A DNA stretch of 64,000 nucleotides, taken from NCBI GenBank assembly GCA_044892505.1, contig CM097883.1, positions 289,540,001 to 289,604,000 of the forward strand, written 5' to 3'. The translations under genes and the position numbers were made by a program. Below, piece by piece: positions 14,351-64,000 of this stretch. The DNA is from Schmidtea nova (taxonomy: Eukaryota). Numbering within the stretch: the stretch's first letter is position 1; each line of letters starts with the position of its first letter. Under the pieces are notes generated by a model. The model did no database searches, was not told the origin of the DNA, and saw only the letters and a list, made by a program, of their open reading frames with translations.

Positions 14351-14353
14351 TTT

Positions 14354-17040: not shown

Positions 17041-17208
17041 AACAATAACCCCACAGAGCAAAAACCAAATTTTAACCGATATAATAACCCAAACAACAGC
17101 TACATACAAAATGAAAATTGGTGTTATTTTCACAATAGATTTGGAGACAAGGCGTACAAGTGCAATGCACCTTGTACTTTCAACAATAAAAAGCCGGAAA
17201 ACATATAA
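17041..17208 (+). pseudogene. gag: Gag C-terminal remnant with CHCC motif
   Basis: WCYFHNRFGDKAYKCNAPC = C-x2-H-x9-C-x3-C, typical of the CsRn1 lineage. Confidence 0.8.
17196..17202 (+). promoter_or_regulatory. Candidate -1 ribosomal frameshift site G GAA AAC
   Basis: Heptamer just before the gag stop; the pol frame is -1 and open from here to ATG 17217. Confidence 0.5.
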
Positions 17209-17216
17209 AGTCACCA

Positions 17217-20200: not shown

Positions 20201-20352
20201 CCAACATTGACCACAACCAAAACCCTCCAGACAAAACCCCAACAAAACAAAAACACATCTCATTCAACTCCAAAAACTCAATAAAACTATTCGACAAGGA
20301 CACAATAATCACACCCCTATACAAAAAACGATATAGCGAATGCCTCAAATAA
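17217..20352 (+). pseudogene. pol: Pol polyprotein (protease, RT, RNase H, integrase) with two stops and one frameshift
   Basis: LVDTGS; KIDLEKAYHQ, MPFGLKNA, YLDD; TDCS/ELLA/YTDH; HHCC zinc finger, IDIVGP, SDQG, VERLH; TAA at 17859 and 19278, frameshift near 19860. Confidence 0.95.
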
Positions 20353-21521: not shown

Positions 21522-23335
21522 CCTATATTAAAGAAAATCAGATTTCAAAATGATAAATCAAAATTTGATAATGTGGCTTTTGTACAACCCGATGATGTTA
21601 ATGAAAGAATTGAAAAAGAGATAAAGCAAATGAGTAAACGATTGGATCAATTAATGTGTAAATTTGAATCAGTCGAAGAAACTGATAATCATATGATGTA
21701 TGAATCGCAATCAGAAGGGTCAGAGACAGATATAATGAAGGAAGTAGTAAATGATGAATTAGAAACAGAAAAAATAAAAATGATTTTGTCGAGAACAAAA
21801 ATTTTAATGGAGTCAAAAGTAAAAGAAACGTCAAAAATAATGACAATGCTAAAGAAATTGAGTCAAATGCCGATGAGTATACAAAAATTAAAAAGTGTAA
21901 TTGAAATGTGTGCTGATTATCATAATGAGAATTCAAAAAATAAAACTGAAACTGAGAATATAATGAAAATATTTGGAAAATTGTTCAGAGAGAAAACATG
22001 GTTAGATTTTATTGTTATTGATGTCGTAGATGAAAGTAATAATGATGTGATGTGTATTCGTTGTGAAATAGAAGAGTGCGTAAAGGAATTTAAAAAGAGA
22101 TTAGAGGAGAATAGCGGAAAATGGATAAAGGAAGTAAAATTTAAAAATAGATGTTTAAATGATGAGGAAATATTAATAGATTGTGGTCTTATACCTGAGA
22201 ATAAAAATAAAGTACAGATAATATTTATGACTAAAAATAATGAAGTAATAAAAGAAGATTCACAGAAAATTTGTAGGGAATTAAAGGATATTTTGTATAG
22301 AGGGGAATCAAAGGAAGTTATTAGAAAATTAAAATTGATAGAAGAAGTTGAAATTGAGAGAGATAGTAAACTACATAAATGAAAAATCAAAATATAGAGA
22401 AAATTTAAGAAATTTAGTACGACGATTAGGCAAAGAACTTAGAAAAACTACAATCGAATTGAATCCGTTTACAATAGCATTAGATTATGAAGATTATAGT
22501 AAAACTGAATATATATTAGAGCATTGGTGCACAAAGGTTCGGAAATTAAGAAAAAGAGCTGCTGAAAGAATAGGAAAAGATGGAATTATTATATTTATGT
22601 CTGAAGGAGAAGAATTAGACGATGATGAATATTTATTTGACTTAGGATTTGTACCACAAGAGTTAAATGAAAATGGATATTTACATTCCGATAGCGGAAA
22701 TGGATATTTGATAAATTGTGTAACAGTGATTAAAGAACAGAAATTTGAATTAATAGACAAATCTGATGGATCAAATACAGACAGAGAAAATGATGATGAA
22801 AATGAGATTAAAGAAGATAAAAAAATAAGCGAAATGGTAAATGATAACGAGGAAACCAAGCATAATAACAAAGATGAGTATAAAGTAAGAAAAGTGCAAG
22901 AATTTGAGGAACTTAAAGGCAAAATGAATAATGAAATTAATACTATGAAGCCTAGAACTATATGAAATAAAGAAAGGTCTTGTGCGATTGGAACAAGAAG
23001 TAGATAAAACCAAAGCATTATTAAAGAGCTTGACTAAAGCAGTATACCCAATGTGTGAAATTGAGATAGATGAAAAATATGAATTGGGAGGAATAGTAAA
23101 TGAAGTGAGAAACAGACTCCCTAGTATCATGCAAAGATTTGGTAAAATTGAAAAATTTTGTGACAAAGATGTAATCGAGAAATTAATACAATCCCACGGC
23201 CAGTGGAAGTTATGCCGGAAAATTGAAACTAATTTAAAACTACGGTACAAAATAATAAAAAGGCCAGAACAGTTATCATTCATGCTAATAGATGCAAAAA
23301 AGTGCCAGTTATGGATGACAATAAATATCAGTTAA
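21522..23335 (+). pseudogene. Gag C-terminal extension of element A: repeated helical (TFIIS-N-like) and ubiquitin-like modules
   Basis: Removing element B joins ...RSCPKNNEKFQRP|ILKKIRFQNDKSKFDNVAFVQP in frame with ORF 21573; UBL-like segments ~22008-22226 and ~22465-22728; continuation through frameshifted ORFs 22348 and 22982. Confidence 0.65.
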
Positions 23336-24646
23336 GATTAAAAAAGAAAAAGTCGCAAGATGAAACAATCAGCAAGCAAAGGGGTTCAAAAAACTCCGCA
23401 TCATTGGGATATATCAATAAAGTATTACTGATTGCAACAGTAATGATAATAAATGTTTTGGGAACAAATTCAACTAAAATATTTCCAATGTATGCAATAA
23501 AAAGAGTTCCACTTTTAGAAAAAATTGATATATATGCAACATGAACCCAAATGGTATGGGTCTATCATTGTGAACCGAGAGACGAAATAAAAATAAATAA
23601 TTTATTAAATTATTTTGATCCACCAATAAAGTTGAATTTTAACAACAATATGTACGTTGTGCATGATTTAACAATGAACTACAAATATCCCTGGTTAATA
23701 ACACAACAACAATATCAGGAAAATAATACAAAAATACAACAGCAAATTGAAATGGAAATTTGGACAAAAAAATTAAATAATAAAGTATCAATAGAACCAA
23801 TAATAAAAGGTATCAATGTATATTGGGAACCCCAGGAATCCCAACAAGTGAAAATTATTTTCGAAAAGTACACGATCAATACGCTAAATCTCAAGAAACC
23901 TTATGTACGTTATGTTAATTTAGAATTGTTTAAAACATATAATCTCGTAATTCATTATTACGAAAAAAGCATTACGGGAAAATGGTACTGAAATTGATAA
24001 TCAATGGTTCTAGATTTATTCCACTCAACAATCGGTGACATTGGAGAATGAAACAAATCGAGTCATCTTTGAATATAAAAATCAGAAATTAAACGCATCT
24101 CGACAAGCGGAAGTTAATAAAAAAGTTGAAATTCATTATTCGGGCAATATTAACAAGTAACATTTCATATCAAATTTTAAATTTTCAAAGATTAAGATCT
24201 ATATCGAATTCAAAATTTGTGATGATGAAAATCAAATATTATCGATTTGCTTCTCATTCCAAACAATGGCAGATCACTCTTGTCAAAACAAAGTTGTTAG
24301 AGTTTCATGTAACATTACTGATATTCATGATTAAAAAAACAATTATCTTTATAAAAATATGACTAAAGAATTTCAAACGACAATTATTCCTACTCATATC
24401 TATGATGTGACAATTCTAAAAAACGTATCATCTTCATCTAATGACAATGCAAAAACATGTATCATTTTATCAACTATTGTTATTAGTGCAACACCATTTC
24501 TCATTGTAATTCTTCTCTCACTACTGATTTGCTTTAAAAGAATGAACAATCATGCAGTACGTCAATCCAAGACCGTGGATTGTCTACGAGGAAACGTTTG
24601 TATAGTGAGACATTTAATATTGCATGCAATTATAATAATTTATTAG
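23302..24646 (+). pseudogene. Type I membrane glycoprotein (env-position ORF), disrupted
   Basis: Hydrophobic signal-like KVLLIATVMIINVLG; beta-rich ectodomain with INVYWEP and several N-x-S/T sequons; TM CIILSTIVISATPFLIVILLSLLICF followed by KR; several stops and a frameshift. Confidence 0.6.
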
Positions 24647-24936
24647 TACGGTAATAGTATGAACTTTCTTTTATCCATATTTATGTGATTTATTGTAAAA
24701 TTTGCGCTTTCGATCGGAAACGGATTTGATTGGTTGAACAAAAATATTATTAAGAATATAAGGGAATACCTAAATTAATAAATTAGAATAAAATTGAAAA
24801 TCAAATAGGTAATTAATTTTATTAAATATTTATTATTTATACCGTTATCAGCCAGGATGGTATACTCAAAGTACTCCATCTTGGCGATAACGTCAAATTT
24901 TAAAATTAAACAAAATTTAAAATTATAAATATTTTA

Positions 24937-26178
24937 GTGATGGAACAGATTCAATGGATCCGAGATATTTATGATGCCCACCTCAAACTGCATCGAAACT
25001 ACATGGGACAAAGTCCATTTAAAATCAATGAAAATACAAAAATACCAAATTATTTAAGAATTGACGACAGAAGAATGAAAACAAGAATCCTGAGAGTAAG
25101 TAAAAATGGAGGAGCAAAGCTGATGGAAGATAGCAAAGTAGAAAATGAAGAGGAATTCACGTTACATGTGTTGAAAGAGAAAGTTGAAATGATAAATGAA
25201 AATCAGCAGATATGGTGGGAAATGCACAAAGGCTCATCGTGGAGAATGCGAGAGGAAGCATTAAAGAAGAAGCTTAGATCGGCGAAAAAAGACGCACTAA
25301 TCGCGCTGGAAACAAGATTCAGAAACAACAAAGAAGTTCCACAAATTGACTCAGAATTGCCATCATATTCTACATTACTGCCAATATCAGAAAATATGAT
25401 AAAGAGAAGATTATCTTTCATTAGAAAAGAATTAAACCAGGAAGAAATAATAAGCAAGATATTGTTTATTGACGCGGAATACGACACATCAGAAAGTGGA
25501 CAAATGGTGCCATTGTGAATTGCCATCATGAATTATTTCGGGAAAATAATTAAAAATATATACCTCACGCCGAGAGGAAAAATGCGACACTTCCAATCAC
25601 GAATACATGGCATCACGGAAATTGCTAGTAGGAACCAATGCGATCAATATTTGGAAATGAAGCAAATCCAGAATCTAACTGTTGGAAAAATATTAGTTGG
25701 CCATGATTTGCATGCGGAATTGCAGTATTTGAAAATCTGGACAATTCAATTGTTTGGCATTCGGGATTTGTCCACGGCAAAGGCACTTCAATTACAAGGA
25801 ATATCGAGAAAAGGCGAATTCTTCAAACTAAAAACTGTGGTCGAAGAAATGCTTGGAGAACAAATGCAAGTGCGCATCCATTCAGCCCTAGAGGATGTCA
25901 AAAACATTCGGAAAATATATCTGAAGATTGAAAATTCATGGATTGATGATATCCAAATTCCCAAAGCAACCCCATCAAAGAAGTATTTATTGGAGGAATA
26001 TCGAAGAGCTCATACCATAAACACAATGCCAACGACGAGCACGGCGATTAGGAAAACAGTTGTCCTTTCCGAAGGAATTGAGAAAATGGCAGAGCAAATC
26101 GATTTGACGGGATATGGAAATTTATTTGGAAATTGGGAAATTGAAGTTGGCAACAGAAAATTATCCCGAGGCAATTGA
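24937..26178 (+). pseudogene. DEDDh 3'-5' exonuclease (REX4/ISG20-like) with N-terminal extension, one in-frame TGA
   Basis: ExoI LFIDAEY (25471), SRIHGIT, ExoII ILVGHDLHAE, IRDLS, ExoIII HSALED (25879); ORFs 24937 and 25528 share a frame separated by TGA 25516-25518. Confidence 0.85.
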
Positions 26179-27879
26179 AGAAAACGTTGAGGTAAACACC
26201 GGTTCGGCCATCGCAAGAGTTTTGATATCATTCGAAAATGGACCGATTTGGCACCTGGAAAATAGAAAAAGAAAAATATTCGCAAATAGAAGCAAATGAA
26301 ACCATAACGGTGAATGGGATTGTCTACCGAAGAGAAAAGACATTTATCAGATAAAAAAGTGATTATGGAAAAATTGAATTAAAATTAGACTAACAATATA
26401 TGTATATATATATTCTAATTGATTAATAAATTTTATATTGAGACTTTGTGATTTGGCATCCCATCCCAAAATAAGTAAAATAAATCAAAAAAAGGATGAA
26501 TGATTGATATCAGCAAAATAACCCTTATGTATTATGAAAACATTAATGTTCGATTATAACGAAACTGAAAAGAATGAGTACTACTAATAAAATTATTATN
26601 NNNNNNNNNNNNNNNNNNNNNNNNNNNNNNNNNNNNNNNNNNNNNNNNNNNNNNNNNNNNNNNNNNNNNNNNNNNNNNNNNNNNNNNNNNNNNNNNNNNN
26701 NNNNNNNNNNNNNNNNNNNNNNNNNNNTTTATTTATTATTAATATCTTGATTATGGTTATGATCATGAAATGTTTGTAAGAATTTAATAATAATTTATTA
26801 ATGATTTAAATGTTTTTTTGCCTTATAAATGATAGGTAACTCCATTTGAAAAAAGTTAACAAATTTATTTGGGTTTAATTAATAATATAATAATGATTTA
26901 AATGCTTTTTGCATTATAAATGTTAGGTAACTCCATTCAAAATAAGTCAATAAATCTTTTAGTATTTTCTTGGGCAACGCAACGACTAACACGCATATGC
27001 TTTTTCTGCTATATTGACGTATTTCCAATCAAGTAACAAGAAATCAAGCCTTTGGACACTGTGCAATCATGGAGACCTTGTAGACTTTATTCAAAAAAAA
27101 TTATAATAATGCATTAGTAGACTATTTATTAACTTTTAAATACTATATGACATCCAGCGTATAGGTATGATTGGTCAATAGTTTATAATAATAATTTACA
27201 AAGAATAAATATATTCTAAGATATGAATTACAGTTCGATTAGAAATCTATTTGTATTGATTATATGCTCGTGGAATGAAAAAAACTTTACGTCAGCAAGC
27301 GTTTGTTGATTACAAAGTTTATTTTTTACAAATATTATTAAATAATTTATTAAGAATAAATAAACGAATAATAATTACATTTTGAATAGAAATTCTAAAA
27401 TAATCAATTTTATATATGATGTAGCTGTCTCATTTTCGGGCAGCTGGACAAATGAAAAAGTTCTCAGATCATTCATTTCTCGAGGAAAAAGTAATTTTCC
27501 TGAGCAATTTGCCGGAGACGCCTTTTTAATATCGTGGACATTTTTCCAACTGCTTCTTTTCAGTGTGTCTTATTCTTTATTAGAGCCTGCAAATTCGTTG
27601 AGAAATAAATCAGAACTATATAGTTATCGAATTATTACACATAACAGATAATTCTTTTTTCAAATCGTAAATATCGTAAATGCCATTTTGTTTTTTGTTG
27701 ATAACTGTTGGATTTGTTGGTGGAGTCTATATTGTAATTATTAAAATGTAATTGTCAATAATAATTATTACCAGTCCAATTGGTGTAATAAAATGGGGTC
27801 TTCTAGTCATGTTGGAGTTTCCTCCGTTCAGAGTTGCGTGGGCTGGGTGCCTTTGCCTTGATCTTCTTTCTCCGTTCAA

Positions 27880-28233
27880 AATCTGTAAAAAATGAAATTT
27901 AAAAAAAAACGAGGCTTTAAAAAGAGAGAGGTGGCCAATCATAAATAAATGTTCTGCGATTGGCCAGCATCTCTTACTTTCTGGCAGCTCACAAAAAGAT
28001 TAATCGGCAATGCCGACAAAAATAAAGTGAAAATTTGATAATTGGCTATGCCGATTTCGATAATTGCCAACAATTAAAAGAGCTGAAAGCTCAATGATGA
28101 TAATTAACAAAAATCGGCAAAGGCCGATCAGATTGTCCAAAATTATAATCGGCAATGTCGATTTGAAAAAAGTAAATATCGGTAAAACCGATTTATTATC
28201 ACCAGCAAAGCTGAGTTATTAATTACCTATTAA

Positions 28234-28240
<7 letters not shown>
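27880..28240. repeat. Repeat unit with inverted CCAAT pair and TCGGY-n3-RCCGA palindromes, copy 1
   Basis: Matches 29450-29780; followed by an (ATT)n tract. Confidence 0.7.
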
Positions 28241-28313
<73 letters not shown>

Positions 28314-29449
28314 TTTATCAAAGAAAGTATTATTATCATAATTATTATCATAAATATTATCAAAATTACATTATTATAATTTGCTCATTTTATTATTATC
28401 ATGTACACAAGTAAAATATTGCAAAATATTTGTGTTATAACTTTCTAATTATGGACAAAACGTATATGCACTTTAGAATATTTTATTAAATTAAGGATGT
28501 ATTGTTTCTTAAATAATCCAGTAAAGCTAAGGTAAATTACAATTTCATTTAGACAACCTCAGTAAAAGGATTTCGACACATCTTTCATCATCTAAAACCG
28601 TGTTAATGACGTTTTGAATATTACCATAAAATAATTTTGTAGAACGATATCACTCTCGCCCAAAAAAAAATCATATTCCAATGGGTTTGTATCCTCAAAA
28701 TAAACTTTTTATAATCTGATTAATATAAAAGGGCTTATTATAATGATTATAATGGCTTCAGAACTGGAATGTACAAAAATAACGCGAAATCAAAAAAAAG
28801 CTATTAAATAGCAAATGTTTATTAAAAGGGACAAAAAATAGAACTTCCATTAAGAGTCTGAACCCCCATAAGGCATAAAGGCACATCCATGAGATTGACA
28901 GAATATGTGCGCCGCTAAGTCAAGGCCGCCCCAGTGTTGGCGAAATATTGATAACCTACAACTCCGCAGATGTTTCCACAGCCAGCACCCACAATTGGTT
29001 TGACATAGCTCCTCATACGGGAGTATTGAGATATCGGGAGTTAATTTTTGTGAGAAGGAAATATCCGGTGATCTGGGTGATAAGTGATCATTCTTCATGT
29101 GAGGGACGTTTTCATCTTTTTCGGAGTGCTGACAGGGAAGTGGTTGCAGTATTTTTGGTTCGGTGTTGAGGTGCCTGATTGTTGAAGGTTTTTGGTTGTT
29201 GTTGGAGGTGTTCGGCGACGTTGGTATAGATTGGTCGTTCCTCATGTGGTGGGGACTTTCGTAGTGTTCGTGGAGATATCTGGTAACCAGTAAAAACATA
29301 TTATTAAAATATTTGAAAGCTACAGCCAAAAAAAAGTTTACAGAAATTCAGCGATCTTGTTAGAAATAGTCATTTCTCTTGTGGTGAGAGTTGTAATAGC
29401 GATTTTCAGATATTGGTGGACAAAATAAAATTGCACATTTTTCAGAGGA

Positions 29450-29780
29450 AATTGTAAAAAAATGAAATTAAAAAAATGAGCCTTAAAAAGAAAGAGAAGC
29501 GGCCAATCACGAATAAATGTTCTGTGATTGGCCAGCAGATATTTAATTCTTCTGCTATTTGGAAATGTTGAGCCGAATGCTTAATTAGTCAAGTAAACAA
29601 TCAACAATGCCGACAAAATTAAAAGATCAATTAAATCGGCAAAGCCGATTAAATAAACAATGAATAGAGCTAAAAGCTCAGAAATTATAATTATCGGCAA
29701 AGCCAAACTAAATAAATAAAATCTCGGCAATGCCGATTTCAAAAAACAAACAAAATATGTCGGCAAAACCGATTTATTAA
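29450..29780. repeat. Repeat unit with inverted CCAAT pair and palindromes, copy 2
   Basis: GGCCAATCACGAATAAATGTTCTGTGATTGGCC; matches 27880-28240. Confidence 0.7.
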
Positions 29781-29953
29781 TTATTATTATTATTAGTGTT
29801 ATTATTATTATTATTATTATTAAAATTATTTATTAATTATTATTATTAGTATCAAATATTGTTATAATTATTATTATTAGTAGTAAAGTGTAGTTACTAT
29901 AATTATTATAATTTATATTATCGATTATAAAAGAGACTAATTAATAATTATTA

Positions 29954-29990
<37 letters not shown>

Positions 29991-29994
29991 CATT

Positions 29995-30265
29995 ATCATA
30001 TTGTGACGCTACTTACATAGGAAAAACACATAGAACTTTTCGCACCCGACTTAATGAACATACTAAAATCAAAACCAGTAATTATTACGAACACTGGGAA
30101 AAAGTACATAAAACAACTCCATCTATAGAAGAAACAAAATGCCAGATCCTACAAGAGGGATTCAAAAATTCATTACAAAGATTAGCTTCCGAGACTTTTT
30201 TCATAAAAAAATACAAACCGTCCATCAACATTCAATTCGCACAAAAAAAAATTAAAATAAAATAA
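29995..30265 (+). mobile_element. Penelope-like GIY-YIG endonuclease 3' fragment
   Basis: CDATYIGKTHRTFRTRLNEH ... RLASETFFIKKYKPSIN. Confidence 0.85.
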
Positions 30266-30353
30266 ATTTTTTCATCCAATAAAATCATTATAAAATATTA
30301 AAAAAATAATTAAGGCTACTATTTAGGATTAAGTAAATATAACGATAGAAATA

Positions 30354-30446
30354 CACACTTGATAAAGGCTGTGCCGAAATATTGTGTTATTGTTTATAAA
30401 AAAAAATTTTGATCTATAGTCATTATGAGAATTATTGATAATAATA

Positions 30447-30512
<66 letters not shown>

Positions 30513-31192
30513 TTTATTATTGGTGTTATTAGTGTCATAAGTATTATTAAAACATTATTAAAAATAGAAATATCACTATTATCATCATTGTTATTATTAA
30601 TATTATTGTTGCTATTAATAACATTAGTGTTATTATTATTATTAAGGTTNNNNNNNNNNNNNNNNNNNNNNNNNNNNNNNNNNNNNNNNNNNNNNNNNNN
30701 NNNNNNNNNNNNNNNNNNNNNNNNNNNNNNNNNNNNNNNNNNNNNNNNNNNNNNNNNNNNNNNNNNNNNNNNNNNNNNNNTCTCACCATTGTTATATTAC
30801 TATTATTATTATCGTTAATTGTTGGTGTTGTTGTCACCATCATTATTAAATTATTGATACCACTGGTATAACCATCTTCGCCATTATAACATTTAGATCA
30901 TTGTAGTATTATTACGATTATTACTATTTACAAGAAAATTATTATTAGTACTAGCAACATTAAGTCAATGTCATTAATAGTATGGCAATATTATTATGTA
31001 GCAGAGTAGTTGGTATTGAGATTACTCTACCATCTTATTTATAATCTAAACTATTATTATTATCATAATTATCTTTTTTCACCTTTGATCTTTTTTTATT
31101 ATTATTATCAATAATTCTCATAATGACTATAGATCAAAATTTTTTTTTATAAACAATAACACAATATTTCGGCACAGCCTTTATCAAGTGTG
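30354..31192. mobile_element. MITE/foldback element with ~100-bp TIRs, TA TSD and (ATT)n core
   Basis: TA|CACACTTGATAAAGG...CCTTTATCAAGTGTG|TA; microsatellite-rich core with a gap. Confidence 0.8.
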
Positions 31193-31296
31193 TATTATAT
31201 ATATATTATATATATTAATGGTATTGAGTGGACTCTACCAGTCTAATAAATAAAAAGATAGATTCGAGGACGAATCTTAAATAAAGGGGTGAGATA

Positions 31297-32073
31297 TGTT
31301 GGGGTTAGTATAAAAATCAAAAAAGTAACAAGAAATATCAAAATAAATAAAAGTGCAAAAATTAATTAAAATTTATCAAAAATTTTAAATTAATATTCAT
31401 GGGGGGAAATGGGTATGGTTGAATGCCAAATCAAAAGACAAACCCAAAAAAATAATAAAAATTTAGTAAGGGAACCCCAGAGAAAGTTATATAGTAAAAA
31501 CAAACTAATTAAAATTAATTAATCGCTCAATGGGAAGCACCGAGGCATTGGGAAACCCGAGCGATGAGGAAAGCTTGAGCGCAGAGAGACCCGAGAGATT
31601 AAAGTCGGGAGATTGCACAGGGCAATTAGAGAAATGCCACCCGAGTGCAATCACAATATTTTGTTATTAAAACAATTAAGCCCGAGATTGGATAACTTTT
31701 AGTTATTGATAAAACATAGTTGTTATTTGCGAGAGGTATAAAAGGCAAAGCAAAGCAGAAAGAAAGGAGAAAAACGAACGGAGAGCCGACGAGCTGAGAG
31801 TTAAAACAGAGAGTATTAAAAATTACTGAAAACTAACAAGAGAGAGATCTTGAGGAATCCAAGAGAGACAAAACGAGGAAAATATTTTATCATAGAGAAT
31901 CAATTCCGAATCCGAAAGAGAGCGCAAATTAGTCAAGAGTGTACATAACAGAAGTTGTTATTTGTGTTGATCGCTAAATAAATTGTTCTGTGTTGGGTTC
32001 ATTGATTTCGATAACTAAAGAACACGAGGAGTCAGGTCAGTAAATCGATCTGAAACAGAATAATAACCCAACA
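31297..32073 (+). repeat. 3' LTR of element A, preceded by PPT AAAGGGGTGAGA (31283-31294)
   Basis: Colinear with the 5' LTR, with multiple substitutions and two ~17-18-bp indels. Confidence 0.92.
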
Positions 32074-36321: not shown

Positions 36322-39243
36322 TAGGCTTGTCAGGTGTACGTTATTTGAACGTGCCGTATGTTATTTTGGCTTACAAAATAAGAATGTACGTTATTTACGG
36401 AATTAGTGAAAACGTACCTAAAGGTACGTTTAATTACTGATTATATTTTAAGTCGCACACATTTTTTAAAAATTGTTGTAATTTAAATCAAATAGTATAA
36501 AAAATACGCGAAAAAGAAAACAAAAATCAAACATTTACATATTAAGAATATAGTTTCGTTTATATTATGCTGCTGGTTCGTTTATATTATGCCGCGTTTT
36601 TGTTTAAAGGGGAAAATTTACCATTTGTTTAAAGTTCAACTTTAATGAAGGAGCGTTTTTGTATTCTTAAAGTATTATTTCTGGAATATTTGTTAAAAAA
36701 AGTATTTAATTGTAAATCTTCTTTTAATTTTATTTAAGATCTATATATGATGGAAAAAGATATTGGTGTTTTTGGAATTTGTGCCATAAAATTAAATATT
36801 TAAATTTTTTGATTTGTTTTGTTATAATATAATTTTTGTCTAGTTCAACTTTAATGAAGCAGCGTTTTCGTATTCTTAAAGTATTATTTCTAGAATATTT
36901 GTAAAAAATAAAGTATTCAAATGTAAATCTACTTTTAATTTTGTTTAAGATTTATATATGATGGAAAAAGAAATTGATACTGACAGCAGTGAATACAACA
37001 CGGAAGATGAAAATCAAAATATTAGTGAAAAATCAAAAATAAAAAGACAACGTCGTATAAATCATTTTAACGATGAGTGGCCAAATTCTTATCAATGGCT
37101 GGTCAGAGTAGCAGGAAAACCCAATGCTGCCAAATGTATTCACTGTCGCACAGAATTTATCATTGTCGTATCTGGAATTCGAGATGTGAAACAACACATG
37201 AAAACAATAAAACATATAACCAACTTAAAAGCAGCATCAAGTTCCAATAGCCTAACTTCATTTTTTTCAGCCTCATCAACAATAACTTCATTAGGTAAAG
37301 AAATTAGCGCTGCAGAGGCTACTTTGTATATCACAGTATTCAGCATTCGCATAGCTTCAATTCATAAAATTGTACCAGTGCTTTATTGCATACTTTGTTT
37401 CCTGATTCAAAAATAGCATCCAATTTCACTTGTGGCCGTACTAAATGTTCAAAAATAGTAACAAATGTATTAGCAAAAGAATCCCAAAATTCTATTATTG
37501 CTAATATAAAAAGCAAAAATCTTCCTTATAGTATTTCTACAGACACATCTAACAAGGGAAATATAAAAATGTTTGCTCTAGTACTACGATATTTTTTGAA
37601 AGATGCTGGTGTTCAAACAAAACTTTTAAATTTTTTTGAGAGCTCAAGTGAAACATCACAGCATATTGCTAGTTCATTAATTAGTTATCTAAATAAAGCA
37701 GATTTAGATCCAAAAAGCATAATAAGCTACTGCGGTGATAATGCTAGCGTCAATTTTGGTCGCCATCAAAGTGTTTTTACTGAGCTCGGAAAAATAATTC
37801 CAGACATTATAGAAGTAGGATGTTTGTGTCATATGCTGTCAAATGCTGTTAAAAATGTTTAAATATACTGAAATTTGACTTAGAATGTATTATAGTTAAA
37901 ATATATAATGAGTTCAGCTCTCATACGAAAAGGAAGCAAACGCTAATGGAATTTTATGATTTTTGCGATATGGAAAACGCAGAAATGTTGCGCCATGTTC
38001 CGACAAGGTGGTTACCTCTTGGTCCGATCGCCTTTACAAAAATTTTGAGCCAATAAAATCATATTTCGATTCCAAATCTTCACCACCGGCATTAGTCATA
38101 GATTTCTTAAACAACGAGTTGTCAGAAGCGTATTTAGGTTTGCTATCCAATATTGGGTCAATTATTAAAACTGTAATATTAAAGCTAGAAGGTGAAGGTC
38201 CTGTAGTAATAGAAGTGTATGACTTGCTTGAGAATTTAAGGAATTCGTTAAAAACAAAGCTACAGCAAAAATTTTATGGTACTATAGCACAACATTCATT
38301 AGAAAAATGCAATAATGATACTGAAAAAACATTATTTCTCAAAAGAGCTTCTGCATTTTTAGAACAATTGATTCAATATATTGAAAAAAGATTTGATTTC
38401 ATTAATAATATGTACAAAGCTCTAAATGTTTTTAAATTGGTAGAAGTTCCTGTTTTTGAAGATTTATTAAATGTACTGAAGGTATTTCCTATAAAAAATA
38501 TTGACTTAGATGGTATATTTGAAAAGTAAATAATATTTAAAGAAATTATACCAGATCCAGATATACAGAAATTAACATATGAAGAAAAATGGTTAAAAAT
38601 ATTTAAAACATTTAATTCTCCAAATACGCTTAAAATTGTAGAATTTATTTTTGCGTTACCTCATTCCAACGCGATGAGTGAACGCATGTTTAGTTTAATG
38701 TTTTATGCTTGGAGATCAGATAGAAGTCGTCTCCTTATAAAAAATATAGAAGCTGAAATCCTCGTGAAGCATAATTTTAATATGAATTGCAAAGAGTTTT
38801 ACAAATATGTGATTCAGAAAGATGAATTATTAAAAAAACTTAAAGGAAATGAAAAATATACCTAATCAAATTATAATTAAATGAAGTCCTTGTGATTTAT
38901 TTTTAAATTGTTATACTATTAATATAATTAAGTTTTTTTTAAGGGCAGAATTAAAGTCTTTGTTATTTGTTTTTTAAATTGTTAAATTATCATATAATTA
39001 ATTTTATTATTTTATTGAAGTGATATAATTAATCTTTTGTTAAGGCAGAATTAAAGGCATTGTGATTTATTTTTTAAATTATTTTATTTTTTAAAATAAT
39101 TTAATAATTTTATATATAACATATTTACTGATAATTATAATAATAAAAAAAATTACATAACATGTATCTTTAATTGTTTTCTTTTTTATGCTGATCAATT
39201 TTTGTATGTACGTTTTTTTCGAAATTTTTATCTGGCAAGCCTA
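36322..39243 (+). mobile_element. hAT-superfamily DNA transposon, near full length, frameshifted transposase (36958-38865)
   Basis: TIR TAGGCTTG(T/C)CAG at both ends; N-terminal Zn finger (AKCIHC...DVKQH...H), STDTS, GDNA, CLCH, C-terminal SNAMSERMFS dimerization motif; no 8-bp TSD retained. Confidence 0.85.
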
Positions 39244-46276: not shown

Positions 46277-47899
46277 TACGGTGACCATACGTACCACATT
46301 GTGTGGTACAGTACAACATTTTGAACAGGCGTCCAACATTGTCAACTGCACCACATTTTGTACCACATTTAAGTCATTTCATTAATATATCGATTTAAAA
46401 AATTATCAATCATTTTTTGTAAAAGTTTTAAGTTTACTGGGTTGTTTTAGGAGTCGATATATTAATAACAAATATATCGATTTTAATTTATATCGCCGGA
46501 AGGAACGACAAGTAAATTTCTTACAAAACCCTGTTTGTCAATTCACATAACTATGACATCTTTGACAGTTTAATATTTTAATTTAAATGCACTTGATAAG
46601 TAGGCTGTGTGGCTGTGTTTTAACGTGAAAAAAAATGTAATTAAAAATTCGGATGCGATTTTTTAAATATCAGCTTTATTATTATTTATTTCAACAATAA
46701 ATTGTCAATTTAATTAAATTGTAAGTTAAAAGTAATAATTAATAAATATTTTATTTTCATTAAAAAAAAATTCTTGAAGGATAAGCGATAATCATGTCAT
46801 CAAACGTAAATGTAAAGAGAAGAAAATGTACTTTTACTGTTGAATTAGCAAAGGAATTTCCATATATCACCAAATGTTATAAAGAAAATGACACCAAACT
46901 AAAATGCGGCAAATGTTATGGAACATTTTCTATTACTTCGGGAAGATACGACATAAATCGACATTTGCTATCAGAAAAACATAAATCTTCAGTGGCTGCA
47001 GCAGCTTCATCAAATAATATTAATAATTATATTATTAGAAACGAATATGGTGATAAAGAAAAACAGATAGCCATTGCTGAAGCAGTATTTGCTTTCCATA
47101 CTGTTAATCACAACCATAGCTTCAGGTCGATGGATTGCACGTCCAAAATTTTGAGAAAATTATTTGACAACAAGTTTAAGTCTGCCAGAACAAAAACGGA
47201 AGCTATAATCAAAAATATATTTGCTCCATATTCAATTGGCTTAATTCAAACAGAAATGGAAAAAACAAATTTTTTTACTATATATTCTGATGCTTCCAAT
47301 CACAAAGATATTAAATTTTTCCCAACATTAATTCGTTATTTTGATTGGAAAGAAGGAATTAAAATCAGAATGCTAGATTTTTTATCATTACGAGGTGAAA
47401 CTGCTGAAATGATAGCAAATTCAATCATTGATATATTAAAAAAATTTAATTTATCTTCAAAATTGGCAGCTTATTGTGCAGACAATGCAAACACCAATTT
47501 CGAAGGATTAAACCGAAAAGATGGTAAAAATGTTTTTACAATTTTGAATAAAAATTTAAGCCAATCAATCGTAGGAATAGGCTGTGCTGCCCATATTGCA
47601 CATAATTATTATGTCTGTGAATTGCAATGTTGTTAAACATGTTATTTTATTTATTTTTGTTATTTAATTATATTATTTTGAATTTAAAATACTGTACTGT
47701 AACATTATAACATTTAATTTATGTTATTTTCTACTTCTACTTAATTGAATGAATTGTTGACAATTACTTAATTTTTATTAAATTTAAATAAATTTGTGAT
47801 ACAATAAATATGTGTCATATATAAATTAATATTTTTTTTTATTTTTGGAAAAACCACCCCTCTGTACCACATTCACTATCAAGAAATCTGGTCCCCGTA
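46277..47899 (+). mobile_element. Internally deleted hAT element with 8-bp TSD CCTTAAAT
   Basis: TIR TACGG(T/G)GACCA; perfect TSD at 46269-46276 and 47900-47907; ORF 46794-47636 is the N-terminal half of a transposase similar to that at 36958. Confidence 0.92.
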
Positions 47900-50115: not shown

Positions 50116-51171
50116 ATGTTAAACATTTACTTATTTCTAATAATCTTCGAGATCCTTCTACAATATTTTCCTGGTCGAAGTTCCCAGCAGATAAATGTGC
50201 AATCCGTTGAATACTTAGATAAGATCTTACTCTCTAGCCATTCTATGATAAATTATCTTGAAAGAAAATATTTTCGAAAAACCGTCGATGTCGTTAGCGC
50301 TTTCCAAATGGCACAGGGTCAGTTGATGCAGATAAATCAGTCAGTTCTCCAGCAATATTGTCAAGCAGCTCTCTGCAGCTTCGAGACAATTGAAAAGAAA
50401 ATAGACAATTTCATTAACAGAATAAACAGACTGATATATTACGCAAGTTTGGAAGTCATGGAAAAAGAATCGGATGCTGGTTATTTCACTCGGTTCATAT
50501 CCATTATGAAAGTTCCTTTTTTGTATAATTCGACTTGGAAAACGTTCCGAAAATTATCAAATAATCAAGCCGAAATTAATGTTAAAAATCTTCTCAATTA
50601 TGACGATGTCATTGGGGATAGATGCTATGAGAAACTGATGGGCAGTGACAAGGTCCTTGACCATAACTGCTATGTAGATATCCATTGCTTACAATATATG
50701 ATTTATAGGCAATCAGTCGTTGGGTATTCTTTATCTCACAAAGTTCTCTATGGAATTTTCCTCCAATATCTCAACTGTTCAGAAATTGTAGACAAATTAG
50801 CCTTGGAAAAAAACACATCCAGAACTAATTTATTGAGCTATGAATGCTCGCTTGTCGAGAGAGAATTGCGTCAATTGTACAGTTTTTTTATTAATAATGC
50901 CACGGAAAATGTAGAGGATATCGATGGTTTACAGGACCTCTATAGTGAGCATTTATTGCTGTGCGGCATGGAGGGTTATTGGGAGGTTCTACAAAGGAAA
51001 TCTGTTGAGTTAATAATAAAATGGCAAAATAAAGATGGATGTATTGAATTGTTAAATTCCAGAAAATTTAAAGAAAAGCTATTAAAATGTTCTTCCCACC
51101 ACAATTCTTTAACTCTAGCTTTATTTGCAAATTACATTCGGTTTATTGTTCAGTTAGGGATTTACCAGTGA
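50116..51171 (+). CDS. UPF0764/C16orf89-like secreted protein, intronless, 351 aa
   Basis: Intact ORF with signal peptide; C-terminal DLYSEHLLLCGMEGY...IIKWQ...GC...CSSHHNSLTLAL matches my recollection of the family pattern. Confidence 0.75.
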   Translation: MLNIYLFLIIFEILLQYFPGRSSQQINVQSVEYLDKILLSSHSMINYLERKYFRKTVDVVSAFQMAQGQLMQINQSVLQQYCQAALCSFETIEKKIDNFINRINRLIYYASLEVMEKESDAGYFTRFISIMKVPFLYNSTWKTFRKLSNNQAEINVKNLLNYDDVIGDRCYEKLMGSDKVLDHNCYVDIHCLQYMIYRQSVVGYSLSHKVLYGIFLQYLNCSEIVDKLALEKNTSRTNLLSYECSLVERELRQLYSFFINNATENVEDIDGLQDLYSEHLLLCGMEGYWEVLQRKSVELIIKWQNKDGCIELLNSRKFKEKLLKCSSHHNSLTLALFANYIRFIVQLGIYQ

Positions 51172-57018: not shown

Positions 57019-58190
57019 TATAAAAATTTGGGGGCTCAGCCGGGATTAGGAGTTTGTTTTGCTTGAAAAAAATCGAAAAGCGACTAAAACGAGTTCACGC
57101 GAGACTTAATGAAAGTTTTCATAAAATATCAACAAACTGTTAAATAAAATTTTGACACAAACAGCGGAAAATTTTGTTTNNNNNNNNNNNNNNNNNNNNN
57201 NNNNNNNNNNNNNNNNNNNNNNNNNNNNNNNNNNNNNNNNNNNNNNNNNNNNNNNNNNNNNNNNNNNNNNNNNNNNNNNNNNNNNNNNNNNNNNNNNNNN
57301 NNNNNNNNNNNNNNNNNNNNNNNNNNNNNNNNNNNNNNNNNNNNNNNNNNNNNNNNNNNNNNNNNNNNNNNNNNNNNNNNNNNNNNNNNNNNNNNNNNNN
57401 NNNNNNNNNNNNNNNNNNNNNNNNNNNNNNNNNNNNNNNNNNNNNNNNNNNNNNNNNNNNNNNNNNNNNNNNNNNNNNNNNNNNNNNNNNNNNNNNNNNN
57501 NNNATTATGATTGGAATCATAAATAGTATTTTAGACGAGCTTTAAATCGAAAAATCGGAAAAAATCGAGAAAATTTCAAACAGAATCACCGCGAAAATGA
57601 AAAAATTGAAAACCAAAACGTGATTTTAAGCCCCAGGAGCAGTCAATAATCGAAAATGAAAATAAATAGCGACTACAGAGCGTAGAATAGGGGTCTCCAA
57701 TACAAACAAACGGCAAATATACCATAGGATAAAAAGTTGAGCCGGAATGGGCCAAAAGTCTAAGAAAATCACGGGTAAAATAGTCAAAATACCAAACCAC
57801 GGCAAATGAGTCCCACGGACAGCTAATAATCGTAAAATTGTTCAAATAACGTCCATGAAGCGTAGAAAGTGAGTACGCAGCACCGGCAAGTGGAAAATAC
57901 CTCGAAAGATAGAATATGACACCGGAATCCGCAAAAAGTGTAGAAAATCGCCGCTAAGAAATTAAAAAAAAAAAAAAATTGAAGAAATTACGAAATTTTG
58001 ACCCAAGAAAGCAGTAACACCGAGTATTAATGATCGTATAGATATCAGAATTATTATTATTATCATTCTAATAGTAGAAACAGTAATTTGGTCAAATAAT
58101 ATAAAAATAAAACTGAGTTATTATATTTTTATTATAATTATTACGTAATAATATATAAGAAATATATTGGTAAAATTGTTGTATAACGCG

Positions 58191-58253
<63 letters not shown>

Positions 58254-59423
58254 GATCATTTTAGTTATTATTACTAGTAGTNNNNNNNNNNNNNNNNNNN
58301 NNNNNNNNNNNNNNNNNNNNNNNNNNNNNNNNNNNNNNNNNNNNNNNNNNNNNNNNNNNNNNNNNNNNNNNNNNNNNNNNNNNNNNNNNNNNNNNNNNNN
58401 NNNNNNNNNNNNNNNNNNNNNNNNNNNNNNNNNNNNNNTATTATTAATATTATTACTGTTATGATAGTGAGTGGTACTGTTGATATCATTAGCAATATTG
58501 GTGTTATTTTGACCATTACTTATTAATTAAGAATGACTGAGGTATGACCCCTGTAATTTTATTTTGTTGGCAAAGAAGGACATGGAAAGTATCGGGTCTA
58601 AAAGAGATAACAACGAAAATGGATCAATACGTGAATTGTTTGTTTTAATTGGTATAATTTAATAAGTTTGGAGTTTGAATGATGGAGGGGATAGATTGTT
58701 GAAGTCAGAATGATGCATGGTGATATTGGAATGTTGAGCGCGACTCTGTTCGGGAATCGAAATCGGGAATAACTCTAAAATCTTACGAAATCATAAAATA
58801 ATATTTAACAACGACTTAAAAACAAATATAATGATACAGAATCAAACAAGAAAACGTGAGACTTAACGCAAATATGAAAATTTTGAGATGCACAAAATTA
58901 GGACCCTAGTAAAAGGAGATGTTATATGACCATAAGATATGGGATAGAGTTCACGCGAATCACTTAGAGAATAAATATTCGAATACACAAAAAATTGATT
59001 TCAGTAAGCGGAAAATTTCCGAGAATTTGCGAGTACTTTAAATAAAAATATAATTATCTTAAAATTGATAAAAGTGTAAAAATCATGAAAAAATTGTGTA
59101 AATAAATGTTTAATTATTCTTTATGTAGAAATATTAGTTATGTACTTAATGGCTGATTATTCTATTCGGAAAATATCGAATATGGACGAATGGAGAAAAT
59201 TATAGAAATATAAAAATATAAAAAATATAAAAAATATAAAAAATATGTATAAAAATGGCTGATTATTCTGTTAATAGTAGTTTTGAAAAATACAAAATAT
59301 ATAAAAAATTATAAAAATTCGTGTACATAGATGTTGAAATTTTTATTATTTATTTTTTCGTTCAAATTATAACGAAGGGTCAATTCAAAAAGTTATAAAC
59401 ACTAGTCATCATGAATATTTTAG

Positions 59424-59906
59424 ATGGAATCGATTGAGTATATTTTACTACGAATCGAGTTGTTTTTCGATTTTAAAGACGACCCATTGCAGGTGTTGAG
59501 CGAGAAACTCGAACGAGTAAATGGAATAAAAGATGAATTATTGTTGAATCCTAGACCACAACCTGAGAACCTAATAGTGATTGCAGGAATTGTGGGAACA
59601 ACAAACGATATTTCGTTGGAATCGATTTATGAATTACAGCGATTGCGACTGAATAATCCGAGCTTTAATCTGAAAATACAAGAATGGATTGGAAAAATCG
59701 ATAAAATCATAGACAAGTTAGAGAGATCGATAAATCAACAGATCGACTCATTCGAAAGATGTTATATTTGTCGACAAAAAGAAGCGAACATTTTATTCAT
59801 GCCATGTGGGCATTTGTGTTATTGCCAGCCGTGCTCTAGAGAAATAAAGCGATGCGTAATCTGCAAACAGGCAATTGATGACAAAATCATGGTATTTTGT
59901 TCGTGA
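59424..59906 (+). CDS. Intronless C-terminal C3HC4 RING (IAP/MGRN/RNF34-type) protein, 160 aa
   Basis: CYICRQKEANILFMPCGHLCYCQPCSREIKRCVICKQAI at the extreme C-terminus; TTTTAG just before the ATG could be a splice acceptor. Confidence 0.85.
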   Translation: MESIEYILLRIELFFDFKDDPLQVLSEKLERVNGIKDELLLNPRPQPENLIVIAGIVGTTNDISLESIYELQRLRLNNPSFNLKIQEWIGKIDKIIDKLERSINQQIDSFERCYICRQKEANILFMPCGHLCYCQPCSREIKRCVICKQAIDDKIMVFCS

Positions 59907-60914
59907 AGAATGTCGTTCGAAATAAACGTTTTAGTCGTGTTGAACTTCGTCGATCATCCAGTACTCCAAATCGTCGTAAAAATTAAATAAACACAGAACA
60001 CTAGGTAATTAATGATTGAGAGTCGTGTAAAAACATAACAAGTAACGGCTAATGCCGAAAAATCGAACATTAGGAAAATGGAAATTTGTGACAAAGTTAC
60101 TTTTCTTTTCTTTTTGAATTTTCTTTATTATTATTATAAATCCTCCTCATCATTATTATATTGATACAAATTTCATTACTATAAGTCTTCCTCATTACTG
60201 TTATTATATTGATTATCATTATTATATCGACCATTAGGACGGACAATAAGTAGAGTAATAAAAATTGATTTTATAAGGAGAATCTTCTGAAATAAGAGCG
60301 ATAAATGAGTGTCTGAGTAGGAAACGGGAAAATAGTACACAAATTCATAACTGAGCTATCAAAAGATAGTACGCCAAATTTTAACAGAGCTATCAAAAGA
60401 TAGTACGCCAATTTTTTTATTGTTGTTGAAAAATTAGTAGACAACAAACGGGGAAAAACTCGATCACCTTGAGGAGAAAGTGTAAAATAGGTACCAGCGC
60501 ATATGTTGGCAAAATTTCGTTTGTGACTGATCATCACAAATTGCGAAACGAGTTAACGCGATTATTTTACGATTTTGAATTAGGTGAAAGGACTAAACCC
60601 GTAATGTTCGTTTTATACACCAGTTTATCAAGGCATGATTGGTACACTGAGGTAGGAGACAGTAACATTAATAAAGAGAAAGATGCTGCAGATTTTAGAA
60701 AGTCGAAAGAGTAGAAAGTGAATTCCGACGATTATAGTAGAAAGATTTTACCATGGTAGTTAAGAAACTCGTAACTGAGAAGTAGTAGAACAATTTGAGA
60801 AAACCAGTCAGTAACAGCGAATTTATTTGTGAAAAATTAAAAGTCGAGAATAGGAAAGCGAGTGATTAAATAGTATAAAGAGAATAATCGAAGACGGCCG
60901 AGAAAAAAAAAAAA

Positions 60915-61851
60915 AATTGAGAAACTTTGAGAGTTCATGTATGTGAGAGACTTTGAGAGTCCAGAAAATTGAGAAACTTTGAGAGTTCATGTATGTGAGA
61001 GACTTTGAGAGTCCAGAAAATTGAGAAACTTTGAGAGTTCATGTATGTAAGAGACTTTGAGAGTCCAGAAAATTGAGAAACTTTGAGAGTTCATGTATGT
61101 GAGAGACTTTGAGAGTCCAGAAAATTGAGAAACTTTGAGAGTTCATGTATGTGAGAGACTTTGAGAGTCCAGAAAATTGAGAAACTTTGAGAGTTCATGT
61201 ATGTGAGAGACTTTGAGAGTCCAGAAAATTGAGAAACTTTGAGAGTTCATGTATGTGAGAGACTTTGAGAGTCCAGAAAATTGAGAAACTTTGAGAGTTC
61301 ATGTATGTGAGAGACTTTGAGAGTCCAGAAAATTGAGAAACTTTGAGAGTTCATGTATGTGAGAGACTTTGAGAGTCCAGATAATTGAGAAACTTTGAGA
61401 GTTCATGTATGTGAGAGACTTTGAGAGTCCAGAAAATTGAGAAACTTTGAGAGTTCATGTATGTGAGAGACTTTGAGAGTCCAGATAATTGAGAAACTGA
61501 GAGTTCATGTATGTGAGAGACTTTGAGAGTCCAGATAATTGAGAGACTTTGAGAGTCCAGATAATTGAGAGACTTTGAGAGTCCAGGTAATTTAGAGACT
61601 TTGAGAGTCCAGATAATTGAGCGCTCTGGGAGAGACTTTGAGAGTCCAGATAATTGAGAGACTTTGAGAGTCCAGATAATTGAGAGACTTTGAGAGTCCA
61701 GATAATTGAGAAACTTTGAGAGTTCATGTATGAGAGACTTTGAGAGTCCAGATAATTGAGAAACTTTGAGAGTTCATGTATGAGAGACTTTGAGAGTCCA
61801 GATAATTGAGAAACTTTGAGAGTTCATGTATGTGAGAGACTTTGAGAGTCC
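60915..61851 (+). repeat. 52-bp tandem minisatellite (two related sub-units) degrading to ~27-bp units
   Basis: AATTGAGAAACTTTGAGAGTTCATGTATGTGAGAGACTTTGAGAGTCCAGAA repeated without spacers. Confidence 0.95.
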
Positions 61852-62605
61852 AATGTTTGTGAATATTGTTGAGAAATTTAGGAAAACGTTTGAGAGATAG
61901 AACTAAATAAAACTGCGCAGTTAAAATTTTGTTATGACAGAGAAAAACGTTGAACGCGAATACTTAAGGTGTAGTAATACAAACCGGTAATAAGAGCAGA
62001 TAAAAGACATCGAGAAATACTTAGGAAATAAGATAATGGCCATGAATAGATGACGAATAAGACATTTTTTCCTCGAATGCCGAGATGAGTATGATCATAC
62101 TGTTATTATAGTATTAGTATTGTTATTATTATTATTATTATCAGGGTATAGATAATTGATACGACCATATAGATAATTATTACGAGATATAGATAATTTA
62201 AAATCTGAGCTCAGAGTAAAAGGGGGGTAAATGGCGTCGATGAAGAAGCGATATTTTTATTTAGATTGTCCAACAGATCAAAGCCAAGCCAAGAGAATAG
62301 TCAAATCAATCAGTTATTGAAGAGGTATATATAGAAGAAAAGAAGAAAAAGAAGTCTAATTGAAAAGGAAAGAAGTAAAAGAAAATAAATCAAAGAAGAT
62401 CCAATTGAAGATAAAAGAGAGATCAGCAATCGATATTAAACGCAAATCGATAATATTACCAAACCAACCAAGTTCGTAAAGTCGAAAGATAAAGAGTCAA
62501 ATCTATAAAGAAACGACGAAAGGAAATTACAAAGAAATAAAGCTGATAAATAAAGAAGTAAAATCCACAATATTAGAAAGTTTGTAGTCGATTTTCAAAA
62601 GAAAA

Positions 62606-64000
62606 ATGGAGGAGAATCAGAAAGTTACCAGTGTAAACTCGGAAGATAATTTATTAAAAGAAGAGCAGAAAATAACCAGTCCAAATGTAGAAGATAATTT
62701 ACAGGAAGAAGAAAAAGAAGTATTAACAATGAATATGCAACTGCAACAGAATATCGAAGGAAAAGTAAATGAAATAATAACTGAATTATCAGACGTTGAA
62801 ATTGAAAGAAAGGGAAATGTATATGAATTTTCAGTAAAAGATATGGAGGGAGAAGAAAAGAAGAAGTTTGTGGAGAAATATAACCGAAAAAGAAGAGAAA
62901 GAAGAAGCGATGATGACACATGTAGCATGGACGAGAAATGGGATGAATCTACGACAATCAAATTAGAAGAAGTGGCACAAAGATTGTTAACAATTACCAT
63001 GGAAGAAATGACGAAAATGAATCAAAAATCGGAAGAAAAGAGGAAATCAGCGAAGCTCGAAAGATCAAAACAAATAGAGACGTCAAAGATCGAACGATTA
63101 ATCAGTAATCTAAGCAAGAGTGCAGGAAATCAAGGTGAAACAACAACTGAGTTACTAAAATGGGTTATAAAAAATAGTGCAAATATATCAAACATGAGAT
63201 TGATAGTGAAAGAAATCGAGAAATGCAGACGTTTATGCCCTTGGTATTTAACACAATTTGATGACATCATGAGAAAATGGAAACAACTGGAACAAACAAA
63301 CGATGATCCACAGATGTGCAGATTGAAAATTCAGTTTCCGAGTCTAGGAGAAATAAAGATGAATGTACCATTAACAACAAAGATCAAAGAGATAAAAGGG
63401 AGATTACCATTCAATTTACCATTTCACTTGAGATATGATGGAGAACCGCTGGATGATGATATAGAAATCGGTGTAACCCCGATACAAATCGAAACAAGTA
63501 ATAATTTAACTGTTGATAAAATTGCAGGAAGCGAGTTGACCAAAAAAGCGAGAGGTGAAGATAATCCCAAAACAACGATAATTGCAATGATGAAAACTCC
63601 AGCTGGACCAACACTTACAATTAACATCGAAGTTAATGGCGTAAAAGTAGACGCGATGATTGATACTGGTGCAAATATATCAGCAATAGATATCGATATG
63701 ATACCAGAAATGTTACAGTTATGCATCGAGAAAACATCAGTAGACGTAATAACATGCAGCAAAGAATCTGTCAATATCGTTGGAAAGATATGGACGGACA
63801 TCGAATACAAAAATGTGAAAGTATCAACTTATTTGACAGTAATAAAACAACTAGGTGCACCATGCATTATTGGAACAGACTTAATACCAAAACTGTTAAA
63901 AGGATCTGTAATTGATTTGAATACGATGAAGTTGAAACACCAAATTGAAGAAAATTGCACAAGAGAAACAGCGACAGAACAATCAAATCAAGAAATGACC
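62606..64000 (+). CDS. Retroelement polyprotein N-terminus: acidic region, helical module, UBL-like domain, retropepsin (open to window end)
   Basis: Open frame from ATG 62606 with no stop to 64000 (hence absent from the ORF track); VDAMIDTGANISAI (D at 63662) and CIIGTDL; UBL-like segment 63320-63480. Confidence 0.8.
   Translation, partial: MEENQKVTSVNSEDNLLKEEQKITSPNVEDNLQEEEKEVLTMNMQLQQNIEGKVNEIITELSDVEIERKGNVYEFSVKDMEGEEKKKFVEKYNRKRRERRSDDDTCSMDEKWDESTTIKLEEVAQRLLTITMEEMTKMNQKSEEKRKSAKLERSKQIETSKIERLISNLSKSAGNQGETTTELLKWVIKNSANISNMRLIVKEIEKCRRLCPWYLTQFDDIMRKWKQLEQTNDDPQMCRLKIQFPSLGEIKMNVPLTTKIKEIKGRLPFNLPFHLRYDGEPLDDDIEIGVTPIQIETSNNLTVDKIAGSELTKKARGEDNPKTTIIAMMKTPAGPTLTINIEVNGVKVDAMIDTGANISAIDIDMIPEMLQLCIEKTSVDVITCSKESVNIVGKIWTDIEYKNVKVSTYLTVIKQLGAPCIIGTDLIPKLLKGSVIDLNTMKLKHQIEENCTRETATEQSNQEMT

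Follow-up and report, generated by a model that had tools for sequence, protein, structure and literature searches.

A Schmidtea nova reading frame with a SUMO-like domain directly before a retropepsin, probably the start of a Ty3/Gypsy Pol polyprotein

The reading frame at positions 62606–64000 (+ strand) of a 64,000-nucleotide stretch of Schmidtea nova DNA (the window; contig CM097883.1, positions 289,540,001 to 289,604,000) was found to encode a charged region, a helical domain of ~78 aa, a ubiquitin/SUMO-like (UBL) domain and a DTG retropepsin, in that order. With a probability of about 0.7, this frame, ORF 62606, encodes the N-terminus of a Pol polyprotein; the element would be a Ty3/Gypsy LTR retrotransposon present in many copies and akin to the Burro-like elements that carry env. 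The original prediction had called it a retroelement, and its protease, its repeat status and its relatives support this, the label itself being one that we infer, since RT, RH and IN would lie beyond the window. The independent, Gag-less start is the feature most worth following; its promoter-like leader and spliced intron had been overlooked in that prediction, as had the SUMO-like precedent found in the available text of PMC6431247.

Reading frame and domain layout

ORF 62606 begins with an ATG at 62606, is preceded by a stop at 62587 and runs for 465 codons without a stop to the window edge, where it is still open; 33 of these codons follow the protease, and two contigs, read by eye, keep the frame open for five more. 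The window is AT-rich (~28% GC) and part of a gapped scaffold. The N-terminal region (62606–63067) is charged and of low complexity (25% Asp/Glu, 18% Lys/Arg) and carries no Gag domain. It is followed by a four-helix domain (63068–63301), delimited by the structural model and by a weak collinear alignment to the helical half of the modules of another insertion, element A, by the UBL domain (63302–63535), recognised by Pfam and by fold, and, after ~25 residues, by the clan AA retropepsin (63611–63901), with DTG at 63662 and IIGTD at 63866. The open frame with helical, UBL and DTG parts that had been predicted was present, including the motifs quoted for it, and the proposed fusion of the UBL directly to a retropepsin is borne out by the agreement of Pfam RVP, PF11976 and the modelled fold. 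Neither a capsid nor a CCHC knuckle was found by Pfam and motif scans of the protein, residues 1–154 of which are highly charged, in line with the predicted lack of both, and no gag was found in 57504–63067; two assembly gaps lie upstream of the ORF. A single low-depth contig of sequencing run X1 joins 63264 to 63556, a joint that would remove the UBL in frame (291 bases, 97 codons).

The UBL and helical domains

The UBL spans aa ~236–310. When aa 233–310 were scanned alone, the sole Pfam match was Rad60-SLD (PF11976, E = 0.0032, under the family cut-off). An AlphaFold model built on a three-row alignment of window stretches had a mean pLDDT of 53, with values of 55–74 across the UBL; an earlier single-sequence model (mean pLDDT 35, best fold match Z 5.5) was uninformative. 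Nine Foldseek matches of the model to SUMO, ubiquitin and ISG15 folds had E ≤ 0.001 (best E = 1e-4), and the top VIA-align match (Z 10.6, rmsd 1.9 over 73 residues) was tied with many UBL folds. Near the top of the fold matches, level with other UBL folds, were the Rad60 SLD2–Ubc9 (3rcz) and SUMO–SIM complexes; an Atlas search with the helical and UBL module of ORF 62606 gave no usable match. A C-terminal Gly-Gly was absent from this UBL and from three related modules, so the domain would not be conjugated and is an unlikely substrate of host de-ubiquitinases; judged from its sequence, the UBL is an integral domain and not a conjugatable modifier.

The four helices that precede the UBL were modelled with a pLDDT of only ~49, and no family was found for them in Pfam, PDB sequence or fold searches. 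This part may resemble the TFIIS N-terminal (LW/TND) domain, which was unlisted for it in Pfam and PDB sequence searches and in fold searches with models of too low confidence to rule it out; death-fold, capsid and TFIIS-N are unconfirmed candidate ideas without a database match.

Element A and the recurrence of the module

Element A (13574–32073) is an LTR-bounded insertion, with LTRs at 13574–14350 and 31297–32073 (723 of 755 positions identical, 95.8%), a 4-bp target duplication and a primer site at 14354. It contains gag, three knuckles and two helical+UBL modules, A1 (21750–22238, + strand) and the partial A2 (22342–22734, + strand), which served as comparators, and has no RT of its own. 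Stops, frameshifts and a nested insertion disrupt it, as does an internal deletion that ends in an integrase C-terminus, the remnant of which (23248–23364) matched the gypsy polyprotein P0003 with E = 1e-6. A1 and A2 were alike (z 9.6, 0 of 2000 shuffles), both matched a module in the polyprotein P0014 (z about 10–11), and the profile of these A-type modules detected another in P0042 (E = 1.4e-21); Pfam detected the module in neither P0014 nor P0042. An Atlas search with A1 reached SUMO/ubiquitin clusters at 0.85–0.86, a lead only. By sequence comparison, the A-type module is a real recurrent unit, firmly homologous in P0014 and P0042. Its size and order in element A, P0014 and P0042 are those of the ORF 62606 module, and the proteases are also related; it follows the Gag knuckles in P0014 and element A and lies ahead of the fusion glycoprotein in P0014 and P0042. 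The recurrence of the module after Gag in three other elements points to a shuffled accessory unit.

These modules are homologous to one another but only marginally similar to that of ORF 62606. BLASTP gave nothing against A1 (best E = 1.3) and a short UBL patch against A2 (E = 0.015), hhalign against the element A modules gave E = 0.034 with a probability of 1.5, and pairwise tests against A-type modules gave z values of 0.2–3.9. A profile of A1, A2 and P0014 aligned model positions 2–133 with aa 155–285 collinearly and without notable gaps, a score reached by 5 of 1000 shuffles; in a search of 1056 sequences the same profile ranked ORF 62606 barely above chance frames (E = 0.26). With P0042 as a fourth row, the score was reached by 14 of 2000 shuffles for the whole module and 60 of 2000 for the UBL half, and the helical half alone was not significant (326 of 2000). 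The predicted homology to element A is consequently marginal, favoured by the collinear profile match (p about 0.005–0.007) and opposed by the BLASTP result against A1 and the helical half. We think it probable that the two modules share descent, as this alignment suggests; an independent capture of the UBL of ORF 62606 is possible. The claim of a lineage trait is valid for the A-type module, which is found in element A and again in P0014 and P0042, two env-bearing polyproteins unrelated to each other, and its extension to ORF 62606 is as marginal as the homology. At the DNA level, no similarity beyond microsatellites was found between the LTR and leader of element A and the ORF 62606 region, so a family partnership between the two lacks direct support.

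Several further features were observed within and around element A. The nested gypsy at 16105–21520 is young (LTRs 935/939 identical, 5-bp target duplication, LTR end TA and not CA) and encodes PR-RT-RH-IN interrupted by stops. At 23233–24643 the frame after the integrase remnant leads into a signal-peptide-like stretch and then a transmembrane segment, with no Pfam match, and P0003 likewise has a membrane-protein-like tail after its integrase. The stretch 23054–23260, which had no relevant Pfam match, presumably resembles BCL-2 BH1/BH2 motifs, as judged by eye, at the place where Burro has its BCL2-like region. A DEDDh-type exonuclease ORF with one stop lies at 24910–26178 (RNase_T, E = 0.004), and a third fragment of the element A LTR, 70% similar, at 3475–3589.

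Protein relatives

A protein search over 1.84 billion representatives gave 39 matches, all of which were scanned with Pfam. The alignment ran through the protease in 38; the other, P0002, an Ig-repeat adhesin, was a repeat-driven artefact and was discarded. Domains of the RT, RH, IN, gag, CCHC or fusion-glycoprotein type were present in 14 of the 39, and five of the best 13 carried an in-frame Monjiviricetes fusion glycoprotein. The absence of a UBL domain from these Pfam scans is weak evidence, since Pfam also misses the module in P0014. The gypsy polyproteins P0014, P0003 and P0042 include a Monjiviricetes fusion glycoprotein in frame and more than one copy of the protease, which forms a tandem of four in P0014 and occurs three times in P0003, once after the integrase. 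In P0042, a complete polyprotein with env, the best match of the pol part is Ty3-G (E = 1.7e-128).

The closest protease relative was P0005 (56–57% over 57 aa), which was also the one match of a word-indexed protein search among shorter proteins, the longer or near-length ones giving none. It was sister to ORF 62606 in the protease tree (support 99/87), a tree with little resolution elsewhere (8 of 36 branches starred) and without a Ddi1 sequence. A profile built on ten PR-RT spacers of the library matches gave the stretch after the P0005 protease 27.5 bits, a value reached by 0 of 1000 shuffles. P0005 is a chimeric gene model with ThiF as its second half, so this continuity is indirect; it is the principal evidence, at one remove, for a pol that continues after the ORF 62606 protease. 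No relative turned up in scans of viral, metagenome and prokaryote genomes, a short acidic-patch match to a Mu-like phage region (L001) having been discarded as chance.

Repeat family, leader and upstream region

Four of the six listed sequencing runs (X1, X2, X3 and X5) were mapped, with RNA and DNA runs undistinguished. Over 61880–64000, X1 gave 2874 contigs, X2 1152, X3 1191 and X5 two; dozens of substitutions recurred among those of X1–X3, which fell into four bands of identity and covered 30 of 30 bins. ORF 62606 belongs to a dispersed multi-copy family, the read depth not being a copy number. Among the 32 listed copy differences in the frame, 14 were synonymous and 18 non-synonymous (P = 0.13 against random transitions; 19 further sites lie outside the list), and selection was not evident beyond chance at these listed sites.

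A GT-AG leader intron at 62558–62601 (+ strand) ends just before the ATG, with a length of 41 nt in other copies and possibly 44 nt here. Joints from 62556/62557 to 62604, which skip 62558–62598, were found in X1 and X2, with none listed for X3 and X5, at a depth of ~3% of the neighbouring bins. They may come from RNA or from intron-less genomic copies, and spliced RNA is implied in either case. Upstream of the intron lie a TATA-like box (62326–62333, + strand), presumed to be functional from its sequence, and a purine tract followed by TG (62218–62233, + strand), which may represent a PPT with the start of an LTR or a G-rich promoter motif. Four such sites occur in the window, one of them being the PPT of the inner gypsy and another lying within the LTR of element A. 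No second copy of the 62218–62233 region and no LTR pair of the ORF 62606 element were seen in the window, and no primer-binding site was recognised by eye between 62232 and 64000. Depth ratios across 62232 disagreed between runs (1.5–1.6x in X1, 0.7–1.2x in X2, 0.9–2.0x in X3). Contigs bridge the purine tract region (61981–62232 in X5; 62180–62333 in X2 and X3), which indicates that the upstream region is joined to the leader in other copies too. G-runs similar to the tract also occurred in divergent contigs; the stretch 62169–62205 and the G-run after it were common to these contigs with differing flanks, which suggests a cis-element of several families.

Further upstream, a tandem array of 18 copies of 52 bp (60913–61852) probably belongs to the same element, a microsatellite is also present, and an intronless ORF of 160 aa (59424–59906, + strand) ends in a C3HC4 RING (zf-C3HC4_3, E = 9e-14) and may be an accessory gene. 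This ORF has a 110-aa N-terminus ahead of its IAP-type RING and lies upstream of the array. Arranged in a row, the RING ORF, the array, the microsatellite and the purine tract with its TG resemble what is expected where an internal region ends at its 3' side and an LTR begins. No tRNA and no Rfam match of note were found.

Alternative explanations

Since a UBL followed by a retropepsin in one chain is also the arrangement of Ddi1/Ddi2, ORF 62606 could be a host Ddi1 gene or retrocopy, a reading that is largely refuted and to which we give next to no probability. The retropepsin (aa 337–430, DTG at aa 353) scored 25.9 bits with RVP (cut-off 20.7) and was the sole Pfam domain in the whole-protein scan; with PF09668, the Ddi1 family, for which a strong match would be expected, it reached 25.6 bits, under the cut-off of 26 and at a level typical of retroelement proteases. 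The PDB sequence matches of ORF 62606 were Ddi1 proteases only, at non-significant E-values (0.19–0.64), but none of the 39 library matches was Ddi1-like, Pfam giving neither a PF09668 score of Ddi1 strength nor a UBA in any of them. Ddi1 is a single-copy host gene with the order UBL–helical–protease, whereas thousands of variant contigs were found here, the helical domain lies ahead of the UBL and there are 154 extra N-terminal residues; the predicted Ddi1-like order thus holds for the presence of UBL and protease in one chain, and the likeness is otherwise superficial. The conclusion that this is not host Ddi1 stood, given a repeat family of many variants and the lack of Ddi1-like library matches, but one argument offered for it was wrong: the active site of Ddi1 had been given as DSG, and the yeast Ddi1 chains 4z2z and 2i1a carry DTG, so that the DSG/DTG contrast fails, even if Ddi proteases mainly have Ser at that position according to the available part of PMC7072860.

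The Gag-less appearance could also be local, with ORF 62606 part of an ordinary two-ORF or rearranged gypsy whose gag(-env) lies upstream past assembly gaps, or of a tandem dimer sharing one short LTR. This is unlikely, though it deserves real weight, as N gaps lie at 57180–57503 and 58282–58438, within 5.5 kb upstream, and the Oikopleura Tor elements are known to use internal promoters for a downstream ORF (env, in the accessible text of PMC4402516). However, no + strand ORF of more than 160 codons was found in 57504–62605, and the leader–ATG junction was found again in other copies, which implies an independent start family-wide even with gag elsewhere. Appreciably less probable is a stand-alone accessory ORF, a helical-UBL-protease convergent on Ddi1, that belongs to a giant element, possibly within a long LTR starting at 62232, acts on host ubiquitin/SUMO pathways and has no RT after it. 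The upstream row resembling an internal-region 3' end, the extra protease copies of P0003 and P0014, the promoter and intron of its own and the restriction of PDB sequence matches to Ddi1 proteases all agree with it, but the continuation of P0005 into a PR-RT spacer, the frame left open past the protease and the disagreement of depth ratios across 62232 argue against it, and the tract at 62218–62233 need not be a PPT, since a similar G-run lies within the element A LTR.

Relation to known systems

In the available text of PMC6431247, the giant planarian gypsy Burro has a PF11976 SUMO-like domain after Gag, BCL2-like and in-frame Env regions before the protease and a dUTPase-like PR-RT region, within one ORF of 4,900–5,100 aa, and an IAP region of Burro1 with RING and BIR is cited in the accessible part of PMC13465017. 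ORF 62606 resembles Burro and GYPSM1 in the SUMO-like domain, here under the Pfam cut-off and joined by a fold match, in the dUTPase-like spacer after the protease (here in its nearest relative, P0005), in the nearby RING/IAP-type accessory gene and tandem repeats, in its high copy number and in its AT-rich host. It differs from Burro in that the UBL abuts the protease and in having its own ATG and no Gag, Env or knuckles. Excerpts of PMC11410931 and PMC8532177 served as context only.

A SUMO-like domain in planarian giant elements is thus already published, and what was not found described is the arrangement, namely a UBL immediately ahead of the protease, in an ORF that lacks Gag and is preceded by a purine tract, then a TATA-like box and a short spliced-out intron. 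The literature search found neither a UBL directly before a retrotransposon protease nor such a Gag-less Pol ORF; Grohme 2018, Repbase entries and supplements may describe it. Foamy virus Pol is expressed apart from Gag by splicing and Tor env from an internal promoter, so both share with ORF 62606 a downstream ORF expressed separately from Gag, but here the intron lies in a short leader right after a promoter-like region and the ORF concerned encodes the protease of a gypsy-type element. The ubiquitin insertions upstream of NS3 in pestiviruses (BVDV) also place a UBL directly before a viral protease, and BVDV P125-2 was the top viral fold match of the UBL (E = 4e-5). These insertions depend on a Gly-Gly end for host cleavage, whereas ORF 62606 and the three related modules have none.

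Proposed mechanism and significance

If ORF 62606 is the start of a Pol polyprotein, transcription would begin at its own TATA-type promoter near 62330, the short leader intron would be spliced out and translation would start at 62606 without Gag or frameshift. The retropepsin would dimerise and cut the polyprotein, which would run via the PR-RT spacer into RT/RH/IN beyond the window, and Gag would be made from another ORF of the element or provided in trans. The helical+UBL module would be an integral accessory unit. Most likely it would serve as a SUMO mimic or decoy that engages the host silencing machinery, through SUMO-interacting motifs or through the SUMO E2, or it would tether Pol to a chromatin partner. 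This role is the weakest step of the proposal, held at somewhat less than even odds; the decoy or adaptor idea draws on Rad60 SLD2, which acts in this way with Ubc9 (3rcz).

Gypsy elements normally produce Pol only together with Gag. A high-copy family that makes a protease-first Pol from its own spliced transcript, with a movable helical and SUMO-like module in front, would, if true, reveal one more means of adjusting the Gag:Pol ratio, and this fragment offers a small expressible domain with which to probe the putative interference of giant elements with host ubiquitin/SUMO pathways. A bolder version, speculative and improbable in our view, would make this a Gag-less, Pol-first LTR element, with promoter and spliced leader at the element start, that takes its Gag/Env particles from partners of the Burro type (element A has kept gag and lost pol) and in which an N-terminal TFIIS-N-like domain and SUMO mimic anchor the enzyme at complexes of host transcription or silencing; if true, it would amount to a two-component retrovirus-like system in an animal.

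Other features of the window

Fragments at 12850–13404 and 29948–30262, read by eye, are taken to resemble the C-terminus of a Penelope-type RT and a GIY-YIG endonuclease. Decayed DNA-transposase-like frames (piggyBac/hAT-like by eye) occur at 7510–8088, 36949–38862 and 46785–47633. An intronless ORF of 351 aa with a signal-peptide-like start (50116–51168), which had no exact match in the protein collection, is probably a host gene.
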